64,000 bases of DNA, taken from the NCBI GenBank assembly GCA_934178345.1, contig CAKPQG010000007.1, positions 9,817-73,816 of the forward strand, given 5' to 3'. Shown one piece after another: positions 15,286-61,385 of the stretch; within the stretch, counting starts at the first letter, position 1, and the number at the start of each line of letters is the position of its first letter. The position numbers and the translations under genes are program-made. The DNA comes from an uncultured Dialister sp. (GTDB lineage Bacteria; Bacillota; Negativicutes; Veillonellales; Dialisteraceae). The notes under the pieces are model-generated. The model searched no databases. It was not told the DNA's origin and saw only the letters and a list, made by a program, of their open reading frames with translations.

Positions 15286-15333
15286 GGGAAACGCTGATTA
15301 AATCTGACTTTGCAATTGAATCAGCGTTTCCAT
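15286..15333. mobile_element. short-form MITE-like element (TIR pair only)
   Basis: GGGAAACGCTGATTAAATC and GATTGAATCAGCGTTTCC inverted repeats separated by about 10 nt. The same termini occur on the 167-bp copies. Confidence 0.6.
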
Positions 15334-15839: not shown

Positions 15840-15877
15840 AAAGTGATGCTACTTGCGGGCGGCATCACTTTTTTGGT
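15840..15877 (+). terminator. intrinsic terminator
   Basis: AGTGATGC-tacttgcgggcg-GCATCACT followed by TTTTTT. Confidence 0.7.
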
Positions 15878-15879
15878 GA

Positions 15880-16395
15880 CTAAGTGGCTAGTGGCTGGTG
15901 ACTAGTGACTGGTGACTGGTGACTTGTGACTGGTAGCTAGGGATTAGTGGCTAGGGATTAGGATTGCGATATGAGAAAACCGCTAGTTTCAAACCTCCGC
16001 GGCGCTTCCATATTTTTATGCGCCGCACCACCCCCGTTGAACCTTCTGAACCTGTTGAACCCGCTCCCCCTCTTTTGCAAACAATCAAGGAACGAGCCGC
16101 CCACGGGCTAACCCTGAACCCTGAAGTTTGAAAGCAGGGATGAGTAGCTAGGGATTAGGGATTGGGGATTAGGAGTGACTAGTGACTGGTGACTAGTGAC
16201 TTGAATACCGCCTTCGGGCATCGCCCTATTTATACTCTGCGGCGAAGCCGCCACCTTCATTCCTCATTCCTAATTCCTAATTTATGCGAAGCTTTCATCC
16301 CCAATCAAAGGGCGGCACGCCCCCGAGGCTAACCCTGAACCCTGAACCCTGAACCCTGAACCCTGAACCCTAAATAACCTTGTCAAGCAAAACCC
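15880..16395. repeat. mosaic intergenic repeat cluster with about 1.5 copies of the roughly 255-bp composite unit
   Basis: Heptad blocks, GCGGCGCTTCCATATTTTTATGCGCCGCACCACC, (GAACCTNTT)n, CAAAGGGCGGCACGCCC, and (CCCTGAA)5 at 16329-16372. Confidence 0.85.
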
Positions 16396-16396
16396 C

Positions 16397-16425
16397 TTGA
16401 CAAGAGCATTTTTCTCATGTATAAT
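16397..16425 (+). promoter_or_regulatory. sigma-70 promoter of the ylxM-ffh operon, with a palindrome over the -35
   Basis: TTGACA, 17-nt spacer, TATAAT. CTTGTCAAG...CTTGACAAG inverted repeat spans the -35. Confidence 0.6.
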
Positions 16426-19608: not shown

Positions 19609-20349
19609 ATGAAAATCGATATCTTATCACTGTTTCCAGAATTCATAGAAGCCTTCTTCCATCAGAGCATGATCAAACGTGCTCTGGAAGGCGGCCTCAT
19701 GGAGATGGCAGTGACGAATCCCAGAGATTTCACCAAGAGCCGGCATGGACAAGTCGATGACACGATCTGTGGAGGTGGGGCTGGGATGCTGATGATGTGC
19801 CAGCCTCTTTTTGATGCCGCCCATCATGTGCTGCCGGAAAAAGGGCCGCGTGACCGTGTGATCTTCCTGTCGCCGGCCGGCATGCCCTTCACGCAGGACA
19901 AAGCAAAACAGCTGTATCGCGACTATGACCATCTGGTGCTCATCTGCGGGCACTACGAAGGCGTTGATCACCGCGTCGAAGAGCATCTTGCGGATGAGCT
20001 TATCTCCATCGGCGACTATGTCCTGACGGGCGGCGAGCTCGGCGCGATGGTCATCGCAGATGCCGTGGCCCGCATGGTGCCCGGCGTCTTAGGCGATGCG
20101 GGAAGCGCACAGAGCGACTCTTTCTATGAGCCGATCCTCGAGTATCCGCAGTACACCAAGCCGGCTGATTACAACGGCTGGAAAGTGCCGGATGTGCTGC
20201 TCTCCGGCCATCATGCAAACATTGCGAAATGGCGCAGGAAAGAAGCACTGAGGCGCACCTTGAAGTGCCGCCCGGATCTCTTAGAGAAGCTCACACTGAC
20301 CAAGACCGATCAGAAGCTCATGCGAGAAATAGAAGAGGAGGAGAAGTAA
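19609..20349 (+). CDS. trmD: tRNA (guanine37-N1)-methyltransferase
   Basis: [12 protein letters not shown]-terminus, GGGAGM, and the SPOUT knot motif. Confidence 0.9.
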
Positions 20350-20930
20350 TGGCACCTGTGTATATCGGGCTCATCCACTATCCCATTTATAATAAGCACA
20401 TGGAAGTCGTCACTACAGCTCTGACCAACTATGACCTCCATGACATAGCCAGAACGGCAAAAACCTATGATGTGAAGCGCTACTTCATCGTGCATCCTGT
20501 CGAAGCACAGCGTGAAATGGCGAGCCGCATCATGAACCACTGGAAAACCGGCGGCGGCGTGCATTACAATATCAACCGGAAGGAAGCCTTCGAGGAAACG
20601 GAACTGGTCCCGACCCTGGAGGATGCCATCGCCTGGATCGAAAAAGAGACAGGCAAAAAACCGGCCATCGTGACCACGGACGCCCGGGTCTATCCAAATA
20701 CTGTTTCCTACACAGAAATGCGCAGGAAGATCCACGAAGAAGATACGCCGATCTTCATCCTCTTTGGTACAGGCTTCGGCATGACCAAGGAAATGATGAA
20801 ACAGTTCGACTACATCGTGGAACCCATCTACGGGGCGGGGACGTACAATCATCTGTGCGTGCGTAGCGCCGTAGCCATCATCCTCGACCGCCTTCTGGGC
20901 GAACCCTGGTGGAATCAAAAGGAGGAATAA
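20349..20930 (+). CDS. conserved hypothetical protein, possibly an uncharacterised SPOUT-like RNA methyltransferase
   Basis: Overlaps the trmD stop (TAATG). 193 aa with a YIGLIHYPIYNK N-terminus. The family assignment is from memory of trmD-adjacent SPOUT-like proteins and is not verified. Confidence 0.35.
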   Translation: MAPVYIGLIHYPIYNKHMEVVTTALTNYDLHDIARTAKTYDVKRYFIVHPVEAQREMASRIMNHWKTGGGVHYNINRKEAFEETELVPTLEDAIAWIEKETGKKPAIVTTDARVYPNTVSYTEMRRKIHEEDTPIFILFGTGFGMTKEMMKQFDYIVEPIYGAGTYNHLCVRSAVAIILDRLLGEPWWNQKEE

Positions 20931-20936
20931 CGTACT

Positions 20937-21671
20937 ATGTCCGGACATTCTAAGTGGGAAAATATTAAGCGCAAGAAAGGCAAGACTGATGCCATTCGCG
21001 CAAGGATCACCACTAAAATCTCCAAGGAAATTACCATCGCAGCCCGCATGGGCGGCGGTGATCCAGTCGGCAACATGCGTCTGAAGCTGGCCCTCACCAA
21101 GGCTAAACAGAACAATGTACCGAAGGAAAATATCCAGCGTGCCATCGCTAAAGGCGTCGGTGCTGCCAGCGGTGCAGGCTTCGATGAAGTCACCTACGAA
21201 GGCTACGGCCCGGGAGGTGCAGCTGTCATCGTCGAATGCAATACCGATAACAGAAACCGTGCAGCCGCAGATATCCGTCATGCATTCACCCATCACGGCG
21301 GCTCTGTAGGCACACCGGGATGCGTAGGCTGGATGTTCAAGAAAAAAGGCTCTATCATTGTAGCCAAAGACGCAGCCGATGAAGACACCGTCATGATGAT
21401 CGCTCTCGATGCGGGCGCTGACGATGTCACTACCGGCGAAGACAGCTATGAAATCACGACCTCTCCGGAAAACTTCCTGACGGTCTCCGAAGCCCTCGAA
21501 AAAGAAGGCATCGAAGCGGAAGCTTCCGAACTGGCTATGGTTCCAGACAACTATGTCAAGCTCGAAGGCGATGCTGCTCAGACCATGCAGCACCTCACCG
21601 ATGAACTGGAAGAACTCGATGATGTACAGGAAGTGTACACCAACGCAGAACTGCCGGAAGATGCGGAATAA
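20937..21671 (+). CDS. yebC: YebC/PmpR-family transcriptional regulator
   Basis: MSGHSKWENIKRKKG N-terminus diagnostic of the family; AAGGAGG RBS. Confidence 0.9.
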   Translation: MSGHSKWENIKRKKGKTDAIRARITTKISKEITIAARMGGGDPVGNMRLKLALTKAKQNNVPKENIQRAIAKGVGAASGAGFDEVTYEGYGPGGAAVIVECNTDNRNRAAADIRHAFTHHGGSVGTPGCVGWMFKKKGSIIVAKDAADEDTVMMIALDAGADDVTTGEDSYEITTSPENFLTVSEALEKEGIEAEASELAMVPDNYVKLEGDAAQTMQHLTDELEELDDVQEVYTNAELPEDAE

Positions 21672-21672
21672 T

Positions 21673-21703
21673 AAAAAAACCACCCGAGAGGGTGGCTTTT
21701 TTA
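21673..21703 (+). terminator. intrinsic terminator
   Basis: AAAAAAACCACCCGAGAGGGTGGCTTTTTT. Confidence 0.8.
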
Positions 21704-21714
21704 TTTGAGGGAAA

Positions 21715-22255
21715 TTTGCGCGGAATCCATGGAACCTGTTATCTCTTATAGTTTGAAGGCAGGGACTAGTGGCCAGGGGTTAGGAGTGACTAGTGACTGG
21801 TGACTGGTATTGCGGTTTCTCAATAACTGGCATTTAAGTCTACTTCCGAATCAAGTGAGGAGTGAGGAATGAAGGTACGGTGCATAAAAATCAGTAGCGC
21901 CGCGGAATTTTGATAGCGCTTCGCGTCGTCGTCATCTCGAGCGTAGCCGAGAGATCTCTATGGCAGTACGGGAATCAGCATGTATGCGCCATTTCATCAA
22001 CGACGTTTTTGTTCTGCATCTTTCTTTTATCTCGCACTGACTTCTTACCGTTGTGCAAGAAAGATCGAGGGCTTCGGTCGGAATGACGATACGAGAGTCC
22101 CGTTCATCTAAAATTTACGGCGCTTTCCTATTTTTATGCGCCGCACCACCACTCCTCACTCCTCACTAGATAGCATGAGGCTTTCAAGCGCCATCAAGGG
22201 ACAGCACGTCCCACGGATATCCCCCCACCCGGCTTGTGGGGGGCTTTTTTTATTG
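21715..22255. repeat. mosaic intergenic repeat cluster, variant using (GAGGAGT)n heptads, with a divergent copy of the palindromic module and a terminal GC hairpin plus T-run
   Basis: GCGCCGCGGAATTTTGATAGCGCTTCGCG; a GTCGTCATCTCGAGCGTAGCCGAGAGATC module; TTTTATGCGCCGCACCACCACTCCTCACTCC; CCCCCCACCCGGCTTGTGGGGGGCTTTTTTT. Confidence 0.8.
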
Positions 22256-22336
22256 GTAGACTTATTATGAATGAGAGACCGGAGAGACACTGATCCTGCA
22301 ATGGGGTCAGCGTTTCCTTTATCGTAAGGAGAGCCA

Positions 22337-23095
22337 ATGATGCTGGAAAAAGAGATCATGGACTATTGGACAAAACGGGCGCCGAGCTATTCGGAGATCA
22401 ATCAGAAAGAGCTCTGCGGACGGCAGAAGGATCTTTGGACGTCCTATATCATGCGGCGTGTACAGGATGCCATGCCGGAGAGAGAAGGGATCAAAGCGCT
22501 TGATATCGGGGCGGGGCCCGGTTTCTTCTCTATCATTCTGGAGATGGCGGGCTGCGAGGTGACGGCACTGGATCGGAATCCTGCCATGATGGCAGAGGCG
22601 AAGAAGAATGCAGGACCGCTCGCAGAGGGGATCCATTATGTCGAGGGTGATGCGGAAGATGTGCCGCTTCCCGCAGACAGCTACGATCTCATCGTGACGA
22701 GAAATCTCACATGGACGCTGCCGCATCCGAAAAAGGCGTATGCGAGCTGGCAGCGCGTCCTGAAAAAGGGCGGGATCCTCCTCAATTTCGATGCGAACTG
22801 GTACAACTACCTGTATAGCGAAGAAGACCGTGCCCTTTATGACAGGGACCGTGAGCAGGTCGCAGAAGCGGGGGCCTTTGACCGCTATATTTCGACCGAT
22901 GTTTTGGCCTGCGAACGCATCGCGCGACAGATGCCCCTTTCGCCCAAGAAACGTCCTGCCTGGGACCGGCAGGTACTTGAAGAGATGGGGATGCAGGTCA
23001 CACTGTATGAGAATATTTCCGAAGAGATCCTTCTTCCGGAGGAGCAGCTGAATTTTGCGGCGACGCCGTATTTTTGCATTGAAGCAAAAAAGTGA
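22337..23095 (+). CDS. class I SAM-dependent methyltransferase
   Basis: LDIGAGPGFF (motif I), acidic motif II and later motifs. AAGGAGAG RBS. Stop lies 4-10 nt before the next gene. Confidence 0.75.
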   Translation: MMLEKEIMDYWTKRAPSYSEINQKELCGRQKDLWTSYIMRRVQDAMPEREGIKALDIGAGPGFFSIILEMAGCEVTALDRNPAMMAEAKKNAGPLAEGIHYVEGDAEDVPLPADSYDLIVTRNLTWTLPHPKKAYASWQRVLKKGGILLNFDANWYNYLYSEEDRALYDRDREQVAEAGAFDRYISTDVLACERIARQMPLSPKKRPAWDRQVLEEMGMQVTLYENISEEILLPEEQLNFAATPYFCIEAKK

Positions 23096-23104
23096 TGGGT
23101 GCCT

Positions 23105-24019
23105 ATGGTGTGGATAGTCAAGAAAGGGATATCCTGCCTTCTCATTCTTCTCGGCGTGACATTTGTCACGTTTGCCCTGATGTATCTGGCAGGCGGAGAT
23201 GCCATTTCCTATTTCTATGAAAATCAGGGAACGGCAGTTTCTCAAGAGATCATGGATGCCATGCGAAAAAAATACGGGCTGGATCAGCCGTTTTTGCTGC
23301 AGTATGGGCATTGGCTGCTGCATGCGCTCATGGGAGATATGGGGGAAAGCTATGTGTCTGGGCGCGCGGTGCTTCCGCTCATCGCATCCAAGATCCCGCA
23401 TACCCTGTACCTTGCGGCGGTATCGATCGTCCTGACGCTGGTAGTGTCGATTCCGCTGGGGGTCCTTTCTGCTGTCAGGAAAGATGGCTGGTGTGACTCT
23501 CTGGCGGGCGGGTTGTCCTTCCTGGGAAATGCGATGCCGAATTTTTTCGTCGCGATCCTTCTGATATATCTGCTGGCTGTGAAGATGAAGTGGTTCCCCG
23601 CTGTATCTGTGGGGCGTTCGCCTTCGGTGGCCTTGCCGGCAGTGACGCTCGCGATCGCTATGAGTGCCAAGTATACGCGCCAGATCCGAGGGGTCGTACT
23701 GGCAGAGCTTCGAAAGGGCTACGTGATGGGGGCGAGAGCACGAGGGGTGAGTGAGGGGACGATCCTCTGTAAGAGTGTCATCCCGATGGCCAGTCCGGCG
23801 ATCGTCACACTGCTTGCGATCTCTATCGGCAGTCTCCTTTCCGGTACGGCCGTGGTGGAGACGATCTTCCTCTGGGATGGTGTGGGGAAGCTGGCAGTGG
23901 ATGCCATTATGCAGAGGGATTATCCGCTCATTCAGGCCTATGTGGTATGGATGGCCGGTATCTATATTTTGGTGAATGGCGCGGGTGATGGAGTATCGCG
24001 TCTGCTGGGGAAACGATGA
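23105..24019 (+). CDS. ABC transporter permease (DppB/OppB/NikB-type)
   Basis: 6 TM and the EAA-like loop of peptide/nickel permeases. Alternative GTG start at 23099. Confidence 0.8.
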   Translation: MVWIVKKGISCLLILLGVTFVTFALMYLAGGDAISYFYENQGTAVSQEIMDAMRKKYGLDQPFLLQYGHWLLHALMGDMGESYVSGRAVLPLIASKIPHTLYLAAVSIVLTLVVSIPLGVLSAVRKDGWCDSLAGGLSFLGNAMPNFFVAILLIYLLAVKMKWFPAVSVGRSPSVALPAVTLAIAMSAKYTRQIRGVVLAELRKGYVMGARARGVSEGTILCKSVIPMASPAIVTLLAISIGSLLSGTAVVETIFLWDGVGKLAVDAIMQRDYPLIQAYVVWMAGIYILVNGAGDGVSRLLGKR

Positions 24020-24867
24020 TTCCATCCGTGCTTCCCGGAGGAGAAATGATGAAAAAGATGAAATCGTCCCGCTCGCGCCTTTATTTGTCGGGAGTCCTCC
24101 TTTTGACGCTGATGCTGGGTGTGATGCTCGCTGAGTATCTCATCCCTTGGGATGCCTATGCCCAGGACTTATCGATGGCGCAGCAGCCGCCTTCTGCGGG
24201 GCACCTTCTGGGAACGGATCGATATGGGCGCGATATGCTTGCCCGTGTCCTTGTCGGAGGGCGCACCAGCATTTGGGGGGCGCTGGTGGTCGTCCTGCTT
24301 ATCACTGCCATCGGGACAGGGATAGGGACAGGAAGCGGATGGTATGGCGGACGGATCGAGCAGGCATGGATGGGACTATCGGATGTATTTCTCGCTTTTC
24401 CAGGACTGGTCCTTGCACTGGCCGTGGCAGGCGTTTCTGGCGGGGGCATGCTGCAGGCGGTCCTGGCGCTCGCGGCGATCGGTTGGCCTAAGTATGCCAG
24501 GCTGTCACGGCGCCTTACGGTTTCTTTGAAAGGGGAGCCTTATATCGACATTGCAAGGATGCGAGGGATCTCTTCCTGGAAGATCATGTACGATCATATA
24601 CTTCCGAATATGGCCGGCCCGATTTTGACGACGGCGGTACTGGATATCGGGACGATGATGATGGAGCTTGCGGCACTTTCCTTTTTGGGACTCGGCGTGA
24701 AGCCGCCGACACCGGAATGGGGCGCTATGATGAGTGAAGGACGTCGTTTTCTCCAGCTCTCACCATGGATGGTCATGGCGCCGGGGGCGGCCATGTGTCT
24801 GACGGTCGGACTTTTTCATCTTTTGGGAGAAGCGCTGAGAGATGCATTTGATCCCAGAGAAAGGTGA
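24016..24867 (+). CDS. ABC transporter permease (DppC/OppC/NikC-type)
   Basis: ATGA overlap with the previous gene; 6 TM; EAA motif region. Confidence 0.8.
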   Translation: MIPSVLPGGEMMKKMKSSRSRLYLSGVLLLTLMLGVMLAEYLIPWDAYAQDLSMAQQPPSAGHLLGTDRYGRDMLARVLVGGRTSIWGALVVVLLITAIGTGIGTGSGWYGGRIEQAWMGLSDVFLAFPGLVLALAVAGVSGGGMLQAVLALAAIGWPKYARLSRRLTVSLKGEPYIDIARMRGISSWKIMYDHILPNMAGPILTTAVLDIGTMMMELAALSFLGLGVKPPTPEWGAMMSEGRRFLQLSPWMVMAPGAAMCLTVGLFHLLGEALRDAFDPRER

Positions 24868-24952
24868 TAGAAGGGGGATAGCCTCATTTCCCCGCATGTA
24901 GGGATGCCTAGGGAGCACGGATCACCATGTATATGTATATAAGGAGAAGCTC

Positions 24953-26491
24953 ATGAATAGGATTTCTAAAGCAGTATTGACTGCACTTGTTTTCACATCG
25001 CTTGCACTTGGCGGTTGCGGCGGCGGAGAGAAGGCATCCGGCGAAAAGACCTTGGTCTATGCTACGACCGGGTATGGCCGTGAGATGGGAGATGCAGGAC
25101 TCGATCCACACGAGAATTATTCCGGATGGAGTACCGTGCGCTATGGCGTAGGGGAGACACTATTCCGCTTGTCCGATGCGATGACTCCGGAGCCATGGCT
25201 GGCGAAGCGTTTCGAATACGTCGATGACAGCACGGTGGATATAGAGCTCCGTGATGGGATTTCTTTTTCCAGCGGGCGAAAAATGGATGGAGAGGCCGTG
25301 AAGGAATGTCTGGAGGCACTGGTGGCGAAGAATCCAAGAGCGGCCTTTGATCTTAAAATCGATCGGATCGATGCCAAAGAAAACACGGTCCGCATTCACA
25401 CGAAGGAATCCTCACCGAGTCTCATTTTCTATCTTTGTGATCCCTATGCGGCCATTGTGGATATGAAAGCGGACAGGAAGGAAGGCCGGGTATCAGGGAC
25501 AGGCCCATATGTGGCGGACTCTGTGACGGATACAGAAATCCATCTGCACAAGAATACATCCTATTGGAATGGCAGTCCGAAAGTGGATCATCTGATCGTG
25601 AAGGCTGTCACCGATGGGGATGCGATGACGGCTGCGCTGCAGGCCGGAAATATCGATGCCACGTATGGACTGCCTTATGCCAGCTATCCGCTTTTTGAGG
25701 ATCCTTCGAAATTTCAGGTCTCCAAGGTGGCCACCAGCCGCAATTTCTTCGGTCAGGTCAATATGCATTCGCCCGTCATGCAGGATATACGCGTGAGAAA
25801 GGCGATCGACATGGCGATCGATCGCGATGGATTCGTGAATCATCTGCTGGCAGGACATGGAGAGGTAGCGGTCGGCCCCTTCCCGAAGGCTCTTCCGTTT
25901 GGTGCATCACATGTGCATGGCGTATCGCATCAGACGGAGGAAGCCAGAAAACTTCTGGAAGAGGCAGGCTGGAAGGATACCGATGGAAACGGCTATGTGG
26001 ATAAGGACGGGAAAGATCTGACCATCCGTTGGCTGACGTATCCGGGCCGCATGGAGCTTCCTGCACTTGCCGAGCTCGTGCAGGATGATCTGAAGCAGAT
26101 CGGGATCAAGGTGGATATCGAGTGCTCGGCAGATCATTTGAAAGTGCTGGAAGCAGGGAATTATGATGTGTATGCCAGCGCACTTGTCACGGCACCCACG
26201 GGGGATCCGGAGTATTTCTTCCATACCTGCGCGCTGGATCAGTCGACCAAGAACCGTGGCTTCTATCACAATGATCGGCTGGAAGCCCTTGCCAAAGAGA
26301 TGCACCAGACATTTGATATAGAGAAAAGAAATCAGCTCGCTATAGAGATGCAGCAGATCATTTTGGATGACCATGCATTTTACTTCATTTCTTATCTGCA
26401 GATGGGGATTTTGTCCCGCAAGGGCGTGACTGGTCTTGCCGCCCATCCTTCAGACTATTATGAAATCACTGCGGAGCTGGATGTACAATGA
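24953..26491 (+). CDS. ABC transporter substrate-binding lipoprotein (SBP family 5, peptide/nickel)
   Basis: Lipobox LALGGCGG; about 510 aa, typical family-5 length. Confidence 0.8.
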   Translation: MNRISKAVLTALVFTSLALGGCGGGEKASGEKTLVYATTGYGREMGDAGLDPHENYSGWSTVRYGVGETLFRLSDAMTPEPWLAKRFEYVDDSTVDIELRDGISFSSGRKMDGEAVKECLEALVAKNPRAAFDLKIDRIDAKENTVRIHTKESSPSLIFYLCDPYAAIVDMKADRKEGRVSGTGPYVADSVTDTEIHLHKNTSYWNGSPKVDHLIVKAVTDGDAMTAALQAGNIDATYGLPYASYPLFEDPSKFQVSKVATSRNFFGQVNMHSPVMQDIRVRKAIDMAIDRDGFVNHLLAGHGEVAVGPFPKALPFGASHVHGVSHQTEEARKLLEEAGWKDTDGNGYVDKDGKDLTIRWLTYPGRMELPALAELVQDDLKQIGIKVDIECSADHLKVLEAGNYDVYASALVTAPTGDPEYFFHTCALDQSTKNRGFYHNDRLEALAKEMHQTFDIEKRNQLAIEMQQIILDDHAFYFISYLQMGILSRKGVTGLAAHPSDYYEITAELDVQ

Positions 26492-27279
26492 GTGAGACGG
26501 AGGTACTTAGCTTCTCCCATGTCTCTATCGCGTACGGAGAACAGGTGGCTGCCCGAGATATTTCGTTTACGCTTTCCAGAGGTGAGTGTCTGACCATTGT
26601 CGGCGAATCTGGCAGTGGAAAGACGACGCTCTGTAAAGCTATACTGGGCCTGCTTTCCCCCGATGGGCGCATCACTGCCGGTGACATAGACTTCAAAGGG
26701 CAGTCCCTTTTGAAAATGAGCACGAAAGAAAGACGGAGCCTGCTGGGGAAGGAGATCACCACCATTTTTCAAGACACGAAGGACGCCTTTTGCCCCATTC
26801 GCACGGTGGGAAGTCAGATCCATGAGGCGATGGAAGCGCATGGCAGGACTTCGGCATCTTCACTTCGTGAAAAAGCCTTTTCTCTTATGCGGAAGCTGGG
26901 ACTGGAGGAAGCCATCCGGATCTGGGACAGCTATCCCTCTGAGCTTTCCGGCGGTATGATGCAGCGCGTGGGCATCGTGAGTGCGCTGCTGCCGGAGCCC
27001 GAGCTGATCTTGGCGGATGAGCCCACCAGTGCGCTCGATGTACTCGCCAGGCAGGAAGTGGTGAGAGAGCTTTTGCTGGTGAAAAAGGAGATCAAGGGCT
27101 CGCTTCTCTGCATCACGCATCAGATCGAGGTTGCAAGGCAGCTTGCGGATCAGGGGATGATCATCCGTCAGGGGCATATCGTAGAACAGGGGAGAGCGGA
27201 AGACCTATGGCAGCATCCGAAAGAAGACTACACGAAGCGGCTGCTCTTCGCGGGGCGTTCTTGCCGTCGTACCTTTTGA
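26488..27279 (+). CDS. ABC transporter ATP-binding protein (DppD/OppD-type)
   Basis: GESGSGKTT Walker A, LSGGMMQR signature, Walker B ILADEPTSALD. Confidence 0.85.
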   Translation: MSETEVLSFSHVSIAYGEQVAARDISFTLSRGECLTIVGESGSGKTTLCKAILGLLSPDGRITAGDIDFKGQSLLKMSTKERRSLLGKEITTIFQDTKDAFCPIRTVGSQIHEAMEAHGRTSASSLREKAFSLMRKLGLEEAIRIWDSYPSELSGGMMQRVGIVSALLPEPELILADEPTSALDVLARQEVVRELLLVKKEIKGSLLCITHQIEVARQLADQGMIIRQGHIVEQGRAEDLWQHPKEDYTKRLLFAGRSCRRTF

Positions 27280-27359
27280 TCTTTTGGGGAAATGATATCT
27301 CTCTGCAGGCACGGGCATTTTGTCAGCATTTTCTTACCATGCATTTGACTGGAGACGCC

Positions 27360-28115
27360 ATGGATATTCTACTGGAAGGGCGGGGCCTCACCCGAAGATT
27401 TCAAAAGAAAGGCCAGACCATCGAAGCCGTGCATGAGGTCAGCTTCACGTTGCAGAAAGGGACAGCGCTTGGGATCGTGGGAGCCTCGGGCTCTGGGAAA
27501 AGTACTCTGGCGAGGATGGCGGCGGGGCTGCTCTTGCCTTCCGAAGGAAAGCTCCTGTTCCATGGAAGCCCTTTGGAGGGAAAAAAGGGACTCAGTCATC
27601 TCTGGAAGCGGTTGCAGATGATTTTTCAGATGCCTCGTGAATCCTTCGATCCACGCTGGACACTGGAGGAAAGCATTAGGGAAGGATTGTCAGAGCAAGG
27701 AATCCAAGGGGCAGCTGCGGAGCTACATGTCAGGAAGGCCGCGGAAGCATGCCAGCTTCCTTTGAAGATCCTCTCGAAAAGACCGCACGAGGTCAGTGGC
27801 GGCGAATGTCAGCGGGCTGCCATCGCAAGAGCGCTCGTGCTGAAGCCGGAAATCTTTGTCTGTGATGAGATGACCAGCGCCTTGGATCCTTTGGTGCAGC
27901 AGGATATACTAGAGCTTTTGATCGCATTAAAAAAAGAGAAACAGCTTTCGTTCCTCTTCGTCAGTCATGATATTTCGCTCACGGAGCGGTTTTGTGACGC
28001 ACTCCTCATTATGCATCAGGGAATATGCGTCGAGCAGGGAGCCATGGAGGAGATCCTGCGTCATCCGAAGGAACTCTATACCCGCCGTCTGCTCGAAGCC
28101 GCTGGCGTAGGATAA
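27360..28115 (+). CDS. ABC transporter ATP-binding protein (DppF/OppF-type)
   Basis: GASGSGKST Walker A, VSGGECQR signature; GGAGA RBS before ATG 27360. Confidence 0.8.
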   Translation: MDILLEGRGLTRRFQKKGQTIEAVHEVSFTLQKGTALGIVGASGSGKSTLARMAAGLLLPSEGKLLFHGSPLEGKKGLSHLWKRLQMIFQMPRESFDPRWTLEESIREGLSEQGIQGAAAELHVRKAAEACQLPLKILSKRPHEVSGGECQRAAIARALVLKPEIFVCDEMTSALDPLVQQDILELLIALKKEKQLSFLFVSHDISLTERFCDALLIMHQGICVEQGAMEEILRHPKELYTRRLLEAAGVG

Positions 28116-28159
28116 AAGCAAAAAGGGGCTGTGAAGAAATGAATTCACATTTCTTCACA

Positions 28160-28460
28160 GCCCCTTTTTACTTTACTTTCATTTGGTTCAGGGTTCAAGG
28201 TTCAGGGCTCTCGTGGCGGCTTCGCCGCCTTATTTTAGAAGATGGTATTCTCGTATCGCAGCCTTCCCCTCTAGGGAATGCAATTAAGTTAAGCGGCAGA
28301 ACATCCTTGGCTCCCCATCGGGGGAGCTGCCCGGAGGGCTGAGGGGGCAGCACTACGGTATATCCAACATTGTTCGATGGCCGCTGGCATGCCCCTATTG
28401 CCTTCGGCACTTCCCCCGAAGGGGGGAAGCAAGTCATTACGGTGCTAACAATTTTGCGCT
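28160..28460. repeat. intergenic repeat cluster (variant module set)
   Basis: GGTTCAGGGTTCAAGGTTCAGGG, GGCGGCTTCGCCGCC, and CTCGTATCGCAGCCTTCCCCTCTAGGG shared with 34250-34300. Confidence 0.7.
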
Positions 28461-28467
28461 CCATATA

Positions 28468-28842
28468 TTACTTCATGAACATATCGATCGCCTGATTCAT
28501 GCGCGTGATGGCCTCCTGGTCATTCTCCTGCACCGCTTCCACGATGCAGTGCTCCATATGCTCCTTCAGGAGAAGCTTGCCGGTATTATTGATCTCCGCA
28601 CGCACTGCGGCGAGCTGGATCAGGACATCGGCGCAGTCCCTTTGGTTCTCGAGCATCTTCTTGATCGATTCCATATGGCCGATGGATCTGGATATCCGAT
28701 TCATGATCGCTTTGATCTTTTGCGGGTCATGCGTATGGCTGTGATTGTGATGATGTCCGTCATGGGTGTGCCCGATCACATGGGTGTGGACATGTCCATC
28801 GCCATGATCGTGGACAAAAACTTTATTCTTTGTATCTTCCAT
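28468..28842 (-). CDS. CsoR/RcnR/InrS-family metal-sensing repressor with a His-rich N-terminal extension
   Basis: Cys-25-His-4-Cys spacing (RDC...EHMEHC) matching the CsoR W-X-Y-Z metal-ligand fingerprint. N-terminal HDHGDGHVHTHVIGHTHDGHHHNHSHTHD tract. Confidence 0.75.
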   Translation of the reverse strand: MEDTKNKVFVHDHGDGHVHTHVIGHTHDGHHHNHSHTHDPQKIKAIMNRISRSIGHMESIKKMLENQRDCADVLIQLAAVRAEINNTGKLLLKEHMEHCIVEAVQENDQEAITRMNQAIDMFMK

Positions 28843-28915
28843 AAGAGGTTTTGATTCCTTTCACTTTTTGTAGGAAGCACGGATCCCATCTGATGAGCGA
28901 TCGAATCGGCGTTTC

Positions 28916-29082
28916 TTAGGGAAACACTGATTAAATCGTTGTCTGATTTCATTCTGGGATTTTTATACAGAGCAAGGAATCATCTGACGCGAATAGCGAG
29001 CTATTTAAGGAAGATGATGACGAAGCTATGTATAAAAATCCATATGAAATCCGGCTCTGCTATTTAATCAGCGTTTCCCTTA
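28916..29082. mobile_element. 167-bp MITE-like element (long form)
   Basis: Terminal inverted repeats TAGGGAAACACTGATTAAATCG and CTATTTAATCAGCGTTTCCCTTA. The interior is itself palindromic (GGATTTTTATACA...TGTATAAAAATCC). Near-identical inverted copy at 60969-61135. Confidence 0.8.
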
Positions 29083-29353
29083 TATTATACCCGATAAAAA
29101 AGGCGGTGGCTAGGGAACCGGGCATCGGCGTGTTCATAAGGAGCAGCAGTCCACATACAGAGGGCGATAGGCCTCCTATATGTATGCTTTTAACTCATTT
29201 CCAATGTCTTCTTCATATAGAATAAGCATACATGTTCCGGTTTGCATAAAAAAGTGTATACTATAAGAAGAAGGACGGATCAGAATTTCTTCGATCAAGA
29301 GATCCTGATCGTCCATCCTTCCGTATGATTCTATGCCAAAAGGAGGAGTCACT

Positions 29354-30523
29354 ATGTTCCGTTTCACATTACCAAGAGATATTTATTGTGGTCATGGAGC
29401 CATTGATGAGCTGTCTTTGCTGAAGGGTCACAAGAAAGCTTTCATTTGCACCGGTGGTCATTCCATGCGGGCAGGCGGTTTCCTTCAGAAGACTGAAAAA
29501 GTGCTGAAGGACGCAGGACTTGCCACCTATACGCTCGAAGGCATCACACCGGATCCATCCATCGAGGAAGTGCAGAAGGGCGCGAAGCTGATGGAAGAAT
29601 TCCAGCCGGACGTGATCGTGGCGATTGGCGGCGGTTCACCGATCGATGCAGCCAAGGCCATGTGGGTCTTCTATGAATATCCGAATCTGACATTCGATGA
29701 GATCAAAAAGCCATTCTCTTTGCCGCCGCTTCGTCAGAAGGCGATCTTCATCGCGATCCCATCCACATCGGGGACTGCGACAGAAGTCACAGCCTTCTCG
29801 GTCATCACGGACTACTCGACAGGCATCAAGTATCCGCTCGCCGATTTCAATCTGACGCCGGATCTAGCCATCCTTGACCTCGACATCCCGGCCACCATGC
29901 CGAAGAAACTCACCGCGCATACAGGCATGGACGCGCTGACACATGCGACCGAGTCCTACGTGTCGAAGTTTGCGAATGGCTTCACGGAACCGCTCTCCAA
30001 GCAGGCTGTCTCCGATATTTTTGACAACATCGTAGAGTCGTATCATGGAGACAAGGAAGCCAGAGGCAAAATGCATATCGCGCAGTGCCTTGCCGGTATG
30101 GCCTTCTCGAATGGTCTTCTGGGGATCACACATTCTCTCGCGCACAAGATCGGTGCCGTCTTCCATATCCCGCATGGGTGTGCGAATGCCATCCTGATGC
30201 CGTATGTCATTCAGTTCAATAAGAGGGCCTGCCTTTCGCGCTACGCCGACCTCGCCCGCGTGGCCGGCCTTCCGGGACGCACCGATGCACAGCTTGTCAT
30301 TTCCTATGAGGAAGCCATCCAGAAACTGAATCAGAAGATGGATATCCCGCTGACGCTCAAAGACTATGGGGTGCCCGAGGAGTTGTACCTTGCCAAGAAG
30401 GATGCCATCGCTGAGAATGCCGTCCTCGATGCCTGCACCCCGGAGAACCCGCGTGAGGCAGATGCGGAAGCTATGGCAAAGATCCTCGAATGTGCTTACT
30501 ATGGGAAGACTGTAAATTTCTGA
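29354..30523 (+). CDS. iron-containing (group III) alcohol dehydrogenase
   Basis: GGGSPIDAAK NAD motif and the His-rich metal-site motifs of Fe-ADH; AGGAGG RBS. Confidence 0.88.
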   Translation: MFRFTLPRDIYCGHGAIDELSLLKGHKKAFICTGGHSMRAGGFLQKTEKVLKDAGLATYTLEGITPDPSIEEVQKGAKLMEEFQPDVIVAIGGGSPIDAAKAMWVFYEYPNLTFDEIKKPFSLPPLRQKAIFIAIPSTSGTATEVTAFSVITDYSTGIKYPLADFNLTPDLAILDLDIPATMPKKLTAHTGMDALTHATESYVSKFANGFTEPLSKQAVSDIFDNIVESYHGDKEARGKMHIAQCLAGMAFSNGLLGITHSLAHKIGAVFHIPHGCANAILMPYVIQFNKRACLSRYADLARVAGLPGRTDAQLVISYEEAIQKLNQKMDIPLTLKDYGVPEELYLAKKDAIAENAVLDACTPENPREADAEAMAKILECAYYGKTVNF

Positions 30524-30560: not shown

Positions 30561-30590
30561 AAGCACTGTGAGATCCACAGTGCTTTTTTG
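30561..30590 (+). terminator. intrinsic terminator
   Basis: AAGCACTGTG-agatc-CACAGTGCTTTTTT. Confidence 0.8.
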
Positions 30591-30673
30591 GTGCGAGCGA
30601 AGGGACTCGAACCCCCATGCACAAGGCGCAGGATCCTAAATCCTGTGCGTCTACCAATTCCGCCACGCTCGCA
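30589..30673 (-). tRNA. tRNA-Leu (anticodon TAG)
   Basis: Reverse complement gives GCGAGCGTGGCGGAATTGGTAGACGCACAGGATTTAGGATCCTGCGCCTTGTGCATGGGGGTTCGAGTCCCTTCGCTCGCACCA. Features: 7-bp acceptor stem, D-loop, anticodon loop tTTAGga, long variable arm, GTTCGAGTC T-loop, encoded CCA. Confidence 0.88.
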
Positions 30674-30958
30674 TGGCTTGCGATACCTATTATATAAGGT
30701 CAGGACCTTTTGGTCAATGGGGGCGAGGAGATGACTTTTGACGAGGGGAAAAACATATCATTCGATATTGAACTATTTGAATATTGTGATATAATACTAT
30801 ATAGAGAGATGTAAATATAGAAGGAAGAGAAATACGAATCCAATCACTTTCGATTTCAATCTTGTAAAATCGAAAGCTGCGATCGAATCGGCATTTCCTT
30901 CCTACAGGGAAGGCGCCATGCGTCTGAACTGTGAGTTTTCCCAAAGGAGGAAACGACT

Positions 30959-31969: not shown

Positions 31970-32011
31970 CAGGGAAACACAGATTCTGCGATTGAATCAG
32001 CGTTTCCCTGG
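31970..32011. mobile_element. short-form MITE-like element (TIR pair), followed by a T-run
   Basis: CAGGGAAACACAGATT...GATTGAATCAGCGTTTCCCTG then TTTTTTTT. Confidence 0.55.
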
Positions 32012-32029: not shown

Positions 32030-32058
32030 TTGACATATTCCTTTATCCATGCTATAGT
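32030..32058 (+). promoter_or_regulatory. strong sigma-70 promoter (TTGACA-17-TGcTATAGT)
   Basis: Consensus -35, 17-nt spacer, extended -10. Confidence 0.65.
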
Positions 32059-37669: not shown

Positions 37670-40537
37670 ATGAATGATTCTCAGAAAGCTGCTGTTTCCT
37701 CGACCGGCCCTACGCTCTTGATCGCGGGGCCGGGGACGGGGAAGACCTATACCATCATCCAGCGCGTGCTTTACCTCATCCGCGAGAAGAGAGTGAAGCC
37801 GGAAGAAATCATGCTGGTCACATACACGCAGAAGGCATCGAAGGAGCTGACGACGCGTCTCACGGATGTGATGACGAAGGCGGGCATCGAGGTGAATCTG
37901 CATGAGATGTACATCGGTACCTTTCATCACATTTGCCGAAAGATTCTGAAAGAATTTCAGGAGTATACGCATCTGCCGAAGAATTATCTGGCAGTGGACC
38001 AGTTCGAGCAGCAGTACATGGTGTATGAGCATCTTTCGGAATTTGCGGCCATCCCGGATTTCCGCCGTGTGGTACAGGATTCCTATCTGAAGCAGGGGGA
38101 GCTGGTGAGGATTTCTCCATGGCGCCAGTGTCAGACGCTCTGCCGCTATGTGAATGGTCTCTCCGAAGAGCTTCTCTTGCCGGAAGAGATGCGGCGGACC
38201 TGCGGGAATGCACTGGGCGGGCGCGTAGAAGTGCTCGCGCGGATGATGATGAAGTACACGCGGCTCGAAGAAGAGGGGCACTTCATTGATTTCTCCCGCC
38301 TGCAGAAGGAGACCTATGCGCTTCTTTCTTCCCATCCGGAGATCCTTGATTGGCTACAGAAACGGATCCGCTACATCATGATCGATGAGTATCAGGATAC
38401 GAATTTCATCCAAGAGCAGCTGATCCGTCTTCTGGGAGGCTCTTCGCAGCAGATTTTCGTGGTGGGGGATGATGACCAGAGCATTTATCGCTTCCGCGGG
38501 GCGTCCATCGGAAATATTCTGGGATTTTCGAAGACCTATGAGAAATGCCATACGTTCAAGCTGGATACGAATTATCGTTCGCATCCGGGCATTGTCCGCT
38601 TCTGCATGGACTGGATGCGCGGACTCAAAAGCTGGCGCGGAGCGGATGGGCGGATGTTCCGCTATGTGAAGGGGGACATTCATGCCGCGTCAGAGGAAAC
38701 GGGGACGCCCGTCCTTCGCATCACGGGGAAGGATCTTTCCGAGTGCCATGCGCGGATCGCTGATTTCATCGAAGGGCTGAAAGAACGGGGGCAGATCACG
38801 GACTATAACCAAGTGGCGGTACTCTGTTCGTCCGTGAAAAGCAATGCATCGCGCGCTTTGCAGCTGCAGCTTCGACGGAAGGGCATCGCCTCCTACGCGC
38901 CGCGGGCGGGCTGGTTCTTCAAGCGACAGGAAGTCGAGTGGCTGATCGGGACGCTCCTATTGCTCTTTCCCGGCTTTTCGGATTCCATGGAAAATCGGGA
39001 CGACATGCAGGAAACGAGGGGGATTCTCGATACATACTTCGAGTGCATGGGCGTCGCGCGGATGATGCTCGTGAAACCCGAGCACCGAGCGCTGAAAGAC
39101 TGGCTGGACCGCACGCGGAGTGTCATTTCCTATGAGAAGAAACTCCCCGCCTCTTTTTTGCACCTCGTCTACCAGATGCTCTCCTTTGCACCTTTTTCCG
39201 ACATTTTGGACAGTGCGGTCCGGGGTGAATCGAATGCAGCCAGAAATCTGTCCGCCATCACGCGCCTGATTGCCCGTTTTGGCTTCTTCCTGCCGGAGAA
39301 TCACGGGCATGGTGAGGAGACTGTGGAGGACGTGCATCTCTTCTTTTCCCGCTATCTGCGGCTGTGGTTTGAAAACGGTGTGAATGAGTACGAAGATGAA
39401 GAGCGCTATGCGCCCTCGGGCTCCGTATCCTTCCTGAATATCCACCAGGCAAAGGGGCTCGAGTACCCCGTTGTCATCGTGCCATCGCTCGACGAGAGGG
39501 CGCGCTGGGATGCGGAAAGTGACCTGATTTCCCGGGTGGTGGAAAAGGTGAGCGGACGAAAGCCTGCCGAGCCACCGAAGGAAATGAAAAATTTTGATTT
39601 ATGGCGCAAGTACTATACGGCCTTCTCCCGCGCGGAAACGCTCCTCGTCCTCGCATCTTCTCAAAAGAAGGGGGACACCTCGGAAGAATTTCAATGGATC
39701 ATGCCCGCTCTTCCAGCATATAATGCGAAAGAAGCAGACTACCACCACCTCACCTGCCGCCCTGTGGGACGGAATGTGTTCAAGCCGCGTTTCGCCTTTA
39801 CGTCGCAGATCGCCCTTTATGAAGAATGTCCGATGAAGTATCTCTGGCATCGCGTCTACGGCTTTGCAGGCACGCAGGGGAGCCATGCCATGTACGGCGA
39901 GCTTGTCCATGAGACGATCGAGGACATCCACCGCGCGGTCCTCCGCGGAGAGGCAGAACGCGTGACGCCACCTGCCATTTATGGATGGATGATGGCGAAT
40001 TACATTTCCCTGTCTGATAAAGAAAACAGCTGGCTCCCTGAGGCAAAACTGAAGCAGGCCTTTGCAGAAATTCGTGGATATGTGGATTTCCGGAAAGGAA
40101 ACTGGAATGATGCGCTCGCTGCCGAGTGTCCTCTTGAGCTGGTCAAAGATGACTACATTCTGAATGGCACCATCGACCTTCTCTCGGGAAATGGGGATCA
40201 GGTGCGGGTCATAGACTTCAAGACAGGGAAGAAACCGCCGATGGACAGTCCTCTTATGGAGAAATACCTGAGCCAGCTCAAGGTATATGCCTACCTCGTC
40301 GAAACAAAACTTGGGCGTTCCGTGGAAAAACTCGTCCTGTACTTCACCAGTGATGCCGAGGATCCATGCGTTGTTTTTCCTATGAGCAAAGAACGCGTGG
40401 AGAAGCGGATGGAAGAATTCGATGCGACGGCAAGGCGGATTCTGGCGCGTGATTTTGCGCGCCGCTGTGAAATGAAAAAGAACGAGCTCCCGACGGCGTG
40501 CCGGTTCTGCGACTTTAGAAAATATTGCAAGAGATGA
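37670..40537 (+). CDS. UvrD/PcrA-like SF1 helicase fused to a C-terminal PD-(D/E)xK (RecB/Cas4/AddB-type) nuclease domain with a 4-Cys cluster
   Basis: Helicase motifs (AGPGTGKTYT, DEYQDTN, VGDDDQSIYRFRGA, TNYRS). C-terminal IDLLSG...IDFKTGK nuclease core, and Cys at YEECP plus CRFCDFRKYC. Confidence 0.8.
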   Translation: MNDSQKAAVSSTGPTLLIAGPGTGKTYTIIQRVLYLIREKRVKPEEIMLVTYTQKASKELTTRLTDVMTKAGIEVNLHEMYIGTFHHICRKILKEFQEYTHLPKNYLAVDQFEQQYMVYEHLSEFAAIPDFRRVVQDSYLKQGELVRISPWRQCQTLCRYVNGLSEELLLPEEMRRTCGNALGGRVEVLARMMMKYTRLEEEGHFIDFSRLQKETYALLSSHPEILDWLQKRIRYIMIDEYQDTNFIQEQLIRLLGGSSQQIFVVGDDDQSIYRFRGASIGNILGFSKTYEKCHTFKLDTNYRSHPGIVRFCMDWMRGLKSWRGADGRMFRYVKGDIHAASEETGTPVLRITGKDLSECHARIADFIEGLKERGQITDYNQVAVLCSSVKSNASRALQLQLRRKGIASYAPRAGWFFKRQEVEWLIGTLLLLFPGFSDSMENRDDMQETRGILDTYFECMGVARMMLVKPEHRALKDWLDRTRSVISYEKKLPASFLHLVYQMLSFAPFSDILDSAVRGESNAARNLSAITRLIARFGFFLPENHGHGEETVEDVHLFFSRYLRLWFENGVNEYEDEERYAPSGSVSFLNIHQAKGLEYPVVIVPSLDERARWDAESDLISRVVEKVSGRKPAEPPKEMKNFDLWRKYYTAFSRAETLLVLASSQKKGDTSEEFQWIMPALPAYNAKEADYHHLTCRPVGRNVFKPRFAFTSQIALYEECPMKYLWHRVYGFAGTQGSHAMYGELVHETIEDIHRAVLRGEAERVTPPAIYGWMMANYISLSDKENSWLPEAKLKQAFAEIRGYVDFRKGNWNDALAAECPLELVKDDYILNGTIDLLSGNGDQVRVIDFKTGKKPPMDSPLMEKYLSQLKVYAYLVETKLGRSVEKLVLYFTSDAEDPCVVFPMSKERVEKRMEEFDATARRILARDFARRCEMKKNELPTACRFCDFRKYCKR

Positions 40538-40539
40538 TG

Positions 40540-41050
40540 TACAGGGATGAGTGTCTAGGGATTAGGAGCCTCGAGTGACTGGTAGCTAGGGATTAGTGGC
40601 TAGGGATTAGGTTTGCGATACGAGAAAACCGCTAGTTTCAAACCTCCGCGGCGCTTTTGATTTTTATGCGCCGCACCGACCCCTTTGAACCTTTTGAACC
40701 TATAGAACCCGATGAACCTCTTTCACACGCAATCAAAGGGCAGCAACGCCCCGAGGGGCTAACTCTGAACCCTGAACCCTGAAGTTTGAAAGCAGGTATG
40801 AGTGGCTAGTGACTAGTGATTGGTAGCTAGGGATTAGTAGCTAGGGATTAGGTTTGCGATACGAGAAAACCGCCAGTTTCAAACCTCTGCGGCGCTTCTA
40901 TTTTTTATGCGCCGCACCACCCCCTTTGAACCTCTTGAACCTATAGAACCCGCTGAACCTCTTTCGCACGTAATCAAAGGGCAGCACGCCCCGTGGTCTA
41001 ACCCTGAACCCCGAACCCCGAACCCTGAACCCCGAACCCTGAACCCTAAA
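40540..41050. repeat. direct tandem duplication (2 copies) of the roughly 255-bp composite repeat unit
   Basis: Unit: GATGAGTG...CTAGGGATTAG heptads, TTTGCGATACGAGAAAACCGCTAGTTTCAAACCTCCGCGGCGCTTYTGATTTTTATGCGCCGCACC, (GAACCTNTT)n, CAAAGGGCAGCACGCCCCG, (CCCTGAA/CCCCGAA)n. Copies at about 40545-40795 and 40796-41048. Confidence 0.85.
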
Positions 41051-52419: not shown

Positions 52420-52730
52420 GGGAGGCTTGGGGTTAGCCCAAGGGGCGGGGCGCCCATGGATTGCGGATGAAAGCCTCTCTCGAATGAGAAATGAGAAATG
52501 CGAAATGGTGGTGCGGCGCATAAAAATCAGAAGCGCCTCGGAGGTTTGAAATTAGCGATTTTCTCGTATCGCAAACCTAATCCCTAGCCACTAGTCACTA
52601 GCCACTAGCCACTAGCCACTAGTCACTAGTTACTAGTCACTAGTCACCAGTCACCAGTCACTCAAGGCCACTCATCCCTAATCCCAGATTTAGAACCTAT
52701 TACCTATGGGGGCATGCATAGGCGGCCATG
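52420..52730. repeat. mosaic intergenic repeat cluster with a roughly 10-copy (CACTAGY) heptamer tract
   Basis: Heptamer tract at 52588-52662; GGTGGTGCGGCGCATAAAAAT and GCGCCTCGGAG boxes. Confidence 0.85.
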
Positions 52731-54719: not shown

Positions 54720-54990
54720 GTGGCTGGTGACTAGGGACTGGGGGCTAGGGATTAGGAGTCTCAAGTGACTGGTGACTAGTGACTGGTAGCTAGGGATTAG
54801 TGGCTAGGGATTAGGTTTGCGATACGAGAAAATCGCTAATTTCAAACCTCCGCGGCGCTTCTGATTTTTATGCGCCGCACCACCATTCCTAATTCCTCAT
54901 TCCTAATTCCTCATTCGCGCAAAGCTTTCATTCATAATCAGTGGACGGAGCCGCCCGAGGGGCTAACCCTTGAATCCGACAACCTTTATT
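54720..54990. repeat. mosaic intergenic repeat cluster
   Basis: Heptads; TTTGCGATACGAGAAAATCGCTAATTTCAAACCTCCGCGGCGCTTCTGATTTTTATGCGCCGCACCACC; (ATTCCTA)n. Confidence 0.85.
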
Positions 54991-58043: not shown

Positions 58044-58110
58044 AATCCCTGGGGAAACGCTGATTCAGTCGCAGAGGCAGATTTTACAAGAACTTTTATA
58101 CATGATTTCG
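58044..58110. mobile_element. truncated copy (5' half) of the 167-bp MITE-like element
   Basis: GGGGAAACGCTGATTCAGTCGCAGAGGCAGATTTTACAAGAACTTTTATACATGATTTCGTCAT aligns to the left half of copy 60969-61135, then diverges. Confidence 0.5.
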
Positions 58111-58217
58111 TCATGCCCTTTCTTGAATAGCTCGATACGACTTGTACCCCAAGCCCCGCCCATTTGCGCCTTTATGATATAATCGAAAGTGGAAACGTAT
58201 AGAAAGGGAGAAACGAA

Positions 58218-60700: not shown

Positions 60701-60704
60701 CTGG

Positions 60705-60968
60705 TGACTGGAATGCCAACTCATGGCACCACCATTTCGCATTTCTCATTTCTCATGCAATCGAGGCTTTCAAACGTAATCAAGGGGCGAGCCGCCCCAC
60801 GGACTAAGTTTGAAAGCAGGGACGAGTAGCTAGGGATTAGGGATTGGGGATTAGGAGTGACTGGTGGCTGGTGACTGGGATTTCTCCGGCATCGTCATCC
60901 CGAGCGCAGCCGAGGATCTTTACTGCACTGCGGGAATCAGTGTGTATGCGCCGAGGGAAAAAGATGTC
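60705..60968. repeat. mosaic repeat cluster (left part) containing a palindromic-module copy that is interrupted by a MITE
   Basis: GGTGGTGCCATGA, heptads, CATCGTCATCCCGAGCGCAGCCGAGGATCTTTACTGCACTGCGGGAATCAGTGTGTATGCGCCGAGGGAAAAAGATGTCC up to the MITE insertion point. Confidence 0.8.
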
Positions 60969-61135
60969 CTAGGGAAACGCTGATTAAATCGCAGAGTCGA
61001 ATTTCATATGGATTTTTATACATAGCTTCGTCATCATCTTCCTTAAATAGCTCGCTATTCGCGTCAGATGATTCCTTGCTCTGTATAAAAATCCAAGAAT
61101 GAAATCTGACAACGATTTAATCAGTGTTTCCCTAG
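60969..61135. mobile_element. 167-bp MITE-like element, inverted relative to copy 28916-29082, nested inside a palindromic-module repeat
   Basis: TIRs CTAGGGAAACGCTGATTAAATCG and CGATTTAATCAGTGTTTCCCTAG. The interior is about 95% identical to the reverse complement of the 28916-29082 copy. Flanking sequence continues the interrupted module. Confidence 0.85.
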
Positions 61136-61370: not shown

Positions 61371-61385
61371 CATAACCATTTATCC

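Follow-up and report, generated by a model that had tools for sequence, protein, structure and literature searches.

The Correia elements of Neisseria (CREE), the enterobacterial ERIC sequences and the pneumococcal RUP elements are intergenic hairpin MITEs of ∼100–160 bp with TA-containing targets. They are co-transcribed with neighboring genes, and compensatory changes preserve their stems, while their terminal inverted repeat (TIR) sequences and presumed transposase families are unlike those of the elements reported here. MITEs associated with the IS5 family of insertion sequences (ISs) have been described as BrickBuilt, MITE239 and MITEPgRS in Porphyromonas gingivalis and as the ISNme1-linked ATR element in Neisseria (PMC4596501).

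Here, we describe a repeat family from an uncultured Dialister sp., a member of a genus common in the human gut. The family was recognized within a 64,000-nucleotide stretch of one contig (the window, in which position 1 is the first letter). We consider it very likely that these repeats constitute a MITE family that arose from insertion sequences of the IS5 family (IS5 group) and depends on them. The family is newly documented in the genus and is of an ordinary kind, IS5-linked MITEs being already known in other bacteria, and the general understanding of MITEs is unchanged by it. A full-text literature search for MITEs together with Dialister returned no relevant paper, and a literature search with the TIR strings returned no paper.

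Long copies, reduced forms and the conserved hairpin

The window carries two long copies of 159 bp each. Copy 1 occupies 28920–29078 on the plus strand, between a csoR-like gene (minus strand) and an Fe-ADH gene (plus strand), and copy 2 occupies 60973–61131 on the minus strand, between mgsA and ftsK (both plus strand). Together they form the longest inverted repeat of the window, 28917–29080 against 60971–61134 (164 nt, 97% complementary). An earlier note, made from the letters of the window, had described two near-identical long copies in opposite orientation, which is correct, and had put their identity at ∼95%, which is slightly too low: by BLAST the copies are 96.95% identical over 164 nt (i.e. 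97%), with five mismatches in the 159-bp core. The same note had given the copies a length of 167 bp and 22-bp TIRs. Both figures need to be reduced, because the outer 4 nt on each side are the target-site duplication; the element proper measures 159 bp and its TIR, GGAAACRCTGATTAAATCG, 19 bp, the ‘TAG’ formerly counted with it being part of a 4-bp YTAR duplication. The two ends agree at 18 of 19 positions. The whole long copy is an imperfect palindrome and is non-coding; the longest ORFs overlapping the MITE encode 42–65 aa, with none above 65 aa, and are not conserved features.

Matches to the 22-mer TIR pattern (≤3 mismatches) numbered seven in the window against 0.00 in 100 shuffles, and matches to the 13-nt core GGAAACGCTGATT (≤2 mismatches) numbered 17 against an expectation of 2.0±1.4. 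Family members in the window were called with a profile HMM (nhmmer) built from 17 copies. The profile recovered the two full copies, the half copy, the short forms and remnants, so the MITE-like family proposed in the earlier note is real; the tally for the 64-kb window is two long copies, one half copy, three short forms and further remnants.

The half copy, at 58053–58137 on the minus strand, consists of the B-end half with one TIR only (model positions 75–159; nhmmer E 9.4e-19; BLAST 78% over 86 nt). Its neighbors are hup (HU) and the MGDG-synthase gene, and the intergenic length around it is unchanged in four other strains. A truncated copy had been reported here before, and it exists, with its limits moved from 58044–58110 to those given by the profile. 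Two short forms built of the TIR pair likewise exist, with revised extents. The 45-bp form at 15287–15331 comprises the TIR pair and a 19-nt spacer, flanked by AAAG and ATGG, and the 35-bp form at 31973–32007, upstream of mscL (minus strand), is a GC-rich stem followed on the plus strand by a run of eight T. The latter was found in six of six related strains examined (as read from the core-motif pairs and the element list). Neither form has a recognizable target duplication at its flanks, and both look old. A near-consensus promoter-like site (TTGACA-17-TATAGT with an upstream TG) is present at 32030–32058 on the plus strand, 23 nt downstream of the 35-bp form and upstream of a dicarboxylate-symporter gene.

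A third, decayed short form of 44 bp (GGAAGCACGGAT...AATCGGCGTTTCT) at 28873–28916 abuts the left end of copy 1. Its right arm matches the core at 28904–28916, and weak nhmmer hits fall at 28877–28915; the TIR-like ‘fragment’ previously listed at 28890–28915 is present, but it is the right arm of this form. A B-end remnant, detected as a profile hit at 30860–30898 on the plus strand, lies upstream of the rubredoxin gene, and in the same context, between the rubredoxin and Fe-ADH genes, an intact short form of 46 bp, bordered by TTAT on both sides, occurs in two related loci (L118 and L120). A possible decayed short form at 22281–22317 matches the core in its right arm (GGTCAGCGTTTCC) only. The 43-bp short forms of related Dialister loci (e.g. 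L047) correspond to the first 18 nt of the long form joined to its last 25 nt, a composition that fits their being internal-deletion derivatives, presumably formed at a short repeat. We take the 35-bp and 45-bp forms of the window, like its half copy and solo ends, for insertions that have undergone further deletion or decay.

Further copies had been proposed as a check on the family, and a collection-wide TIR scan found at least 17 distinct long copies in Dialister assemblies, which are 77–97% identical and lie in different flanks. A 400-bp ‘long variant’ in one locus (L034) was rejected, as it reflected an N-run in the record and no real variant. By exact-protein look-up, the MscL and MGDG-synthase proteins of the window were found on many long human-gut metagenome contigs. 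The MscL cluster includes a protein assigned by NCBI to Dialister sp., and together with the scan this places the window in a gut Dialister (Veillonellaceae). Seven short contigs (L004, L018, L019, L021, L068, L107 and L113), from Dialister assemblies or from gut bins with Dialister-type MITE variants, end within or at a MITE or variant copy, a pattern that fits the breaking of short-read metagenome assemblies by these repeats. Dialister-type copies also occur in several bins labelled as other genera (Fusicatenibacter, Agathobacter and Alistipes ‘cleanbin’ assemblies), which may contain mis-binned contigs.

Folded as single-stranded DNA, copy 1 reaches −33.4 kcal/mol (z −6.9 versus shuffles). 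Aligned with one another, the 17 distinct long copies have a mean column identity of 90%, and the central 30 nt are the best-conserved part, even in diverged copies. A hairpin of 59 pairs accommodates the alignment with 97% of cells paired. Both sides have changed in 16 of these 59 pairs, compared with 3–7 when the partners were slid by 1–3 columns, and none of 500 column shuffles reached the observed values. Much of the covariation separates two subfamilies, so that the independent events are fewer than the cell counts suggest; three diverged copies (L117, L046 and L022) contribute further compensated pairs. At the level of the aligned copies, compensatory changes are shown to keep the MITE hairpin. 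The upkeep of 59 pairs goes beyond the needs of a transposition that uses the TIRs only, which hints at an additional constraint. An Rfam scan of the window returned only a tRNA-Leu above the gathering score. In a local E-value search nothing scored better than a plant miRNA-precursor model, whose 26.5 bits fall short of its gathering score of 117.

Insertion sites, target duplications and neighboring genes

Copy 2 provided a direct comparison between filled and empty alleles, a check that had been suggested beforehand and that bore out a target duplication. The copy is bounded by CTAG on the left (60969–60972) and on the right (61132–61135). Three human-gut metagenome relatives (L123, L124 and L126) have the empty site, gatgtcCTAGtgctg, with a single CTAG, while the window and L125 have the filled site, gatgtcCTAG[GGAAAC...159 bp...GTTTCC]CTAGtgctg. 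Copy 2 is thereby shown to be a precise 159-bp insertion accompanied by a duplicated CTAG. Copy 2 is the one copy for which a clean empty site was obtained, and because CTAG is palindromic, this site alone cannot tell a 4-bp from a 2-bp (TA) duplication.

The flanks of copy 1 are imperfect, TTAG (28916–28919) on one side and CTTA (29079–29082) on the other, and its site is polymorphic. One related locus (L122) is identical to the window, another (L117) has a 79%-identical copy with TTAT/TTAT flanks, and three (L118, L120 and L121) are without the long copy. L121 was considered as an empty allele for copy 1 and rejected; the region is mosaic and the comparison unclean, and it was not counted as evidence of a duplication. 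Since presence of the MITE differs between near-identical strains, its insertions can be used as strain markers.

To a broader survey of flanks, all DNA fetched contributed 58 distinct elements of 61–450 bp bounded by the core. Identical 4-nt flanks were found in 28 of the 58, compared with none for the next 4 nt outward (the shifted control), and 15 of these 28 pairs are non-palindromic. The consensus YTAR was fitted by 39 left flanks and 40 right flanks of the 58 elements.

The genes flanking the copies in the window are all ordinary housekeeping genes, encoding a CsoR-type repressor, Fe-ADH, MscL, HU, MGDG synthase, MgsA and FtsK. Just outside copy 1, a promoter-like site (TAGCCA-17-TATAAT) lies at 29112–29084 on the minus strand, identified as a consensus match only. 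The sequence matching this site adjoins the csoR start in L121, which lacks the elements, so that in the window strain the 5′ leader of csoR would include copy 1 and the short form beside it. Judging from this position, copy 1 may alter the expression of csoR, a metal-responsive repressor.

The surroundings of copy 1 also differ in gene content between strains. A difference in oligopeptide ABC-transporter genes adjoins the copy: where the window has genes for SBP_bac_5 and two ABC ATPases (∼24953–28115), L118 and L120 (13457–14250) have them missing or replaced by two small ORFs. Beside the rubredoxin gene, the corresponding region is replaced in L119 (11578–20429, syntenic with window ∼20000–30500) by a segment of a conjugative element encoding a TraG/VirD4-like coupling protein, TrbL, PrgI and a DNA methylase, among others. 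The tRNA-Leu gene at 30589–30672 is the likely integration site of this segment.

A different reading of the family is that the repeats are structured elements serving the host (an sRNA, an mRNA-stability hairpin or a terminator family), which would be conserved in place rather than mobile. The long hairpin with its covariation agrees with this, as do the strong conservation of the central 30 nt in diverged copies, the GC-rich stem and T-run of the 35-bp form, and the placement of copy 1 within the csoR leader if the promoter-like site at 29112–29084 is used. We nevertheless consider it very unlikely, because near-identical strains differ in whether they have a given copy, and the insertion signature is precise. 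Furthermore, both orientations of the copies are seen, and they are not significantly biased with respect to the direction of flanking genes (six antisense and two sense in co-directional contexts, based on crude ORF calls). The family has no Rfam match, and simple scans flagged no promoter or terminator inside the elements. Within a mobile MITE family, individual copies may have acquired a secondary, co-opted role.

IS5-family insertion sequences with the same ends

The earlier note had suggested looking for an IS whose ends share the TIR. Full-length candidates were sought as core motifs paired in inverted orientation 0.6–3.5 kb apart, and a metagenome scan for a TIR followed by the motif P-[FY]-Y-P was also performed. 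The terminal core GGAAACRCTGATT was found in five full-length IS5-family ISs of ∼1.2 kb, from Cupriavidus, Lachnospiraceae and metagenomes, with none in Dialister. Two of them, a 1207-bp element from Cupriavidus (L039) and a 1212-bp element with GTAG/GTAG flanks from a Lachnospiraceae genome (L101), each contain one ORF of ∼330 aa. Its product matches NCBIfam NF033581 ‘IS5 family transposase’ (E 1e-105 and 1e-90, respectively) and the Pfam domains DDE_Tnp_1 and DUF772. Two more came from the metagenome scan, namely a 1209-bp IS with TTAA/TTAA flanks (L127) and a 1202-bp IS (L128) whose transposase-proximal end is identical to the MITE A-end at 25 of 26 positions; their transposases are 51–60% identical to those of L039 and L101 (tblastn). 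The fifth, a 1234-bp IS with perfect core repeats on the P0091 contigs, encodes a transposase 75% identical to that of L101 (homology search; precomputed Pfam domains). Ten non-Dialister TIR loci were also tried as ISs and rejected: the adjoining ORFs encode transporters, UvrC, kinases and the like, with no transposase among them, and these loci are therefore small elements rather than ISs.

Three features agree in placing the MITE in the IS5 group: the sequence of its ends, the length of the autonomous elements and the duplication of 4 bp at YTAR. An IS5-type DDE transposase supplied in trans would bind both MITE ends and insert the element at YTAR-like tetranucleotides by staggered cuts, the repair of which would duplicate 4 bp. 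Mobilization in trans is what we infer for the Dialister copies. The earlier statement that the window holds no cognate transposase agrees with tblastn searches using two IS5 transposases, which detected no IS5-type transposase in the window or in any fetched Dialister locus. Two homology searches with IS5 transposases returned >8000 clusters each, and among the matches listed, most of which carried no source name, no source-named homologue was from Dialister; the metagenome scan yielded more TIR-bearing IS5 elements, none attributable to Dialister. Because no transposase was found in the genus, its source would be either an unsampled resident IS or a transient one. Beyond ∼20–26 nt, the MITE interior resembles none of the full-length IS ends. 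The MITE thus has only its ends in common with these ISs, as do the IS5-linked MITEs of P. gingivalis (PMC4596501), and simple internal deletion from a full-length IS is at most a possible origin.

These elements and the flank survey bear on a second alternative, in which the repeats are a MITE of the Tc1/mariner-IS630 type with a TA duplication and an element reading GGGAAAC...GTTTCCC. TA does flank nearly all copies, and the filled and empty alleles of copy 2 formally fit a 161-bp element with a TA duplication, given the palindromic CTAG. A 2-bp duplication does not, however, predict the 15 elements with identical non-palindromic 4-nt flanks (TTAG/TTAG, CTAA/CTAA, GTAG/GTAG and CTTA/CTTA), and every full-length IS found with the terminal core encodes an IS5-family transposase. 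An IS630-type origin is accordingly highly improbable.

We regard as extremely improbable a third alternative, that the repeats are REP/REPIN-like hairpins spread by a domesticated Y1 (RAYT) transposase that acts on single-stranded hairpins, with the short forms as REPINs and the solo motifs as REP singlets. The hierarchy of singlet, inverted doublet and long hairpin is similar, the hairpin is strongly conserved by compensatory changes, and G-U type pairs occupy more columns than A-C type mismatches (as counted in the pair tables), which hints weakly at a strand-specific fold. REP/RAYT mobilization nonetheless proceeds without target duplication, whereas the MITE shows 4-bp duplications and a clean empty site. 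The motif, moreover, is the terminal repeat of DDE-type IS5 elements and spans phyla, while REPs are species-specific. Lastly, the chance that a single segmental duplication or an error of assembly gave rise to the two long copies is negligible. Only their high identity speaks for it, whereas their flanks diverge directly beyond the 4-nt duplication, both copies are reproduced in independent metagenome assemblies and many other copies lie at other loci; a duplication including flanks had been raised in the earlier note, and the differing flanks together with the clean empty site exclude it.

Related repeats and comparison with known systems

The IS5-clade core is also found at the ends of many MITE families whose interiors are unrelated, in Proteobacteria, Verrucomicrobiota, Desulfovibrionaceae, Spirochaetes and Firmicutes (at L002, L017, L032, L038, L062, L071, L074, L077, L096 and other loci). 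Several of these are ∼159–161 bp long, and most form palindromes around a small central hairpin, ATAS-N2-4-STAT. Their agreement in size and architecture may reflect either convergence or inheritance. Many unrelated MITE families across bacterial phyla have, by this account, been seeded by one conserved IS5-clade end sequence.

The smallest units observed were 27-bp palindromes, GGAAAYGCTGATTWAATCAGCRTTTCC, which consist of two overlapping 13-nt terminal cores. They occur in Oscillospiraceae, Alistipes and Clostridia assemblies (L043 2968–2994, L052 2070–2096, L066 4001–4027, L086 439–465 and L116 4448–4474), flanked by identical 4-mers (CTAG, CTAA or TTAG). Should they prove mobile, these palindromes would be transposable units of extremely small size and would rank with the smallest so far described; alternatively, they are deletion remnants of larger MITEs. 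A wider proposal would combine two ideas: that the hairpin is under selection, either as a single-stranded intermediate in transposition or maintenance or through transcripts acting on neighboring genes (as in the csoR leader), and that IS5-clade ends sustain mobility in palindromes as short as 27 bp, flanked by 4-bp duplications, in several phyla. We put this forward as an unlikely conjecture.

Repeats of other kinds are abundant in the window. Copy 2 is nested in a palindromic repeat at 60882–61220, with arms CATCGTCATCCCGAGCGCAGCCGAGG... and ...CCTCGGCTACGCTCGAAATGACGATG, and this host repeat is itself multicopy. Nearly all intergenic regions of the window are mosaics of short repeat modules unrelated to the MITE (e.g. 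15874–16400, 40530–41050, 52480–52700, 54720–54960 and 60700–61380). Among them are tandem heptamer arrays of GTGACTA, GGGATTA, AACCCTG, GAATGAG and CATTTCT (49 TRF rows in all), a GCGCCGC hairpin, a AGTTTGAAAGCAGGGATGAG module and a TCGTCATTTCGAGCG... palindromic module. Near-identical strains vary in the copy number of the heptamers and in the modules they contain. STRR-like heptamer arrays are classically cyanobacterial, and their occurrence in Dialister seems unusual.

Among characterized elements, an IS5-family element of E. coli, annotated as ISKpn26 family, resembles the relatives of the Dialister MITE in several respects. It is 1195 bp long, close to the 1.2 kb of the ISs that bear the MITE's TIR, and its transposase is 53% identical to that of L039 and 46% identical to that of L101. 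It is flanked by TTAG/TTAG, i.e. the same 4-bp duplication at a YTAR target, and its ends, GGAAGGTGCGAAYAAG, start with GGAA and agree with the MITE TIR at 8 of 16 positions. The MITE differs in being 159 bp long, in lacking a transposase and in forming a hairpin throughout, and its TIR belongs to a different clade from the E. coli ends. Agreement in the ends is also seen with ISBmu23-like elements, IS5 elements of Ralstonia and Cupriavidus, and Lachnospiraceae IS5 elements (L101 and P0001), which share the core GGAAACRCTGATT(A/C)AAT as well as the 4-bp duplication. Unlike the MITE, these are autonomous 1.2-kb ISs from other taxa, with unrelated interiors, and none was found in Dialister.

The IS5-linked MITEs of P. 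gingivalis and Neisseria offer a parallel in kind: they too are non-autonomous, with IS5-family TIRs and unrelated interiors, and are intergenic, multicopy and often nested or decayed (PMC4596501). Their TIRs are of another IS5 subgroup (GAGACC...), and their duplications are variable or absent (PMC4596501). BrickBuilt, furthermore, contains a minisatellite (PMC4596501), whereas the Dialister MITE is a compact 159-bp hairpin with a 4-bp YTAR duplication.
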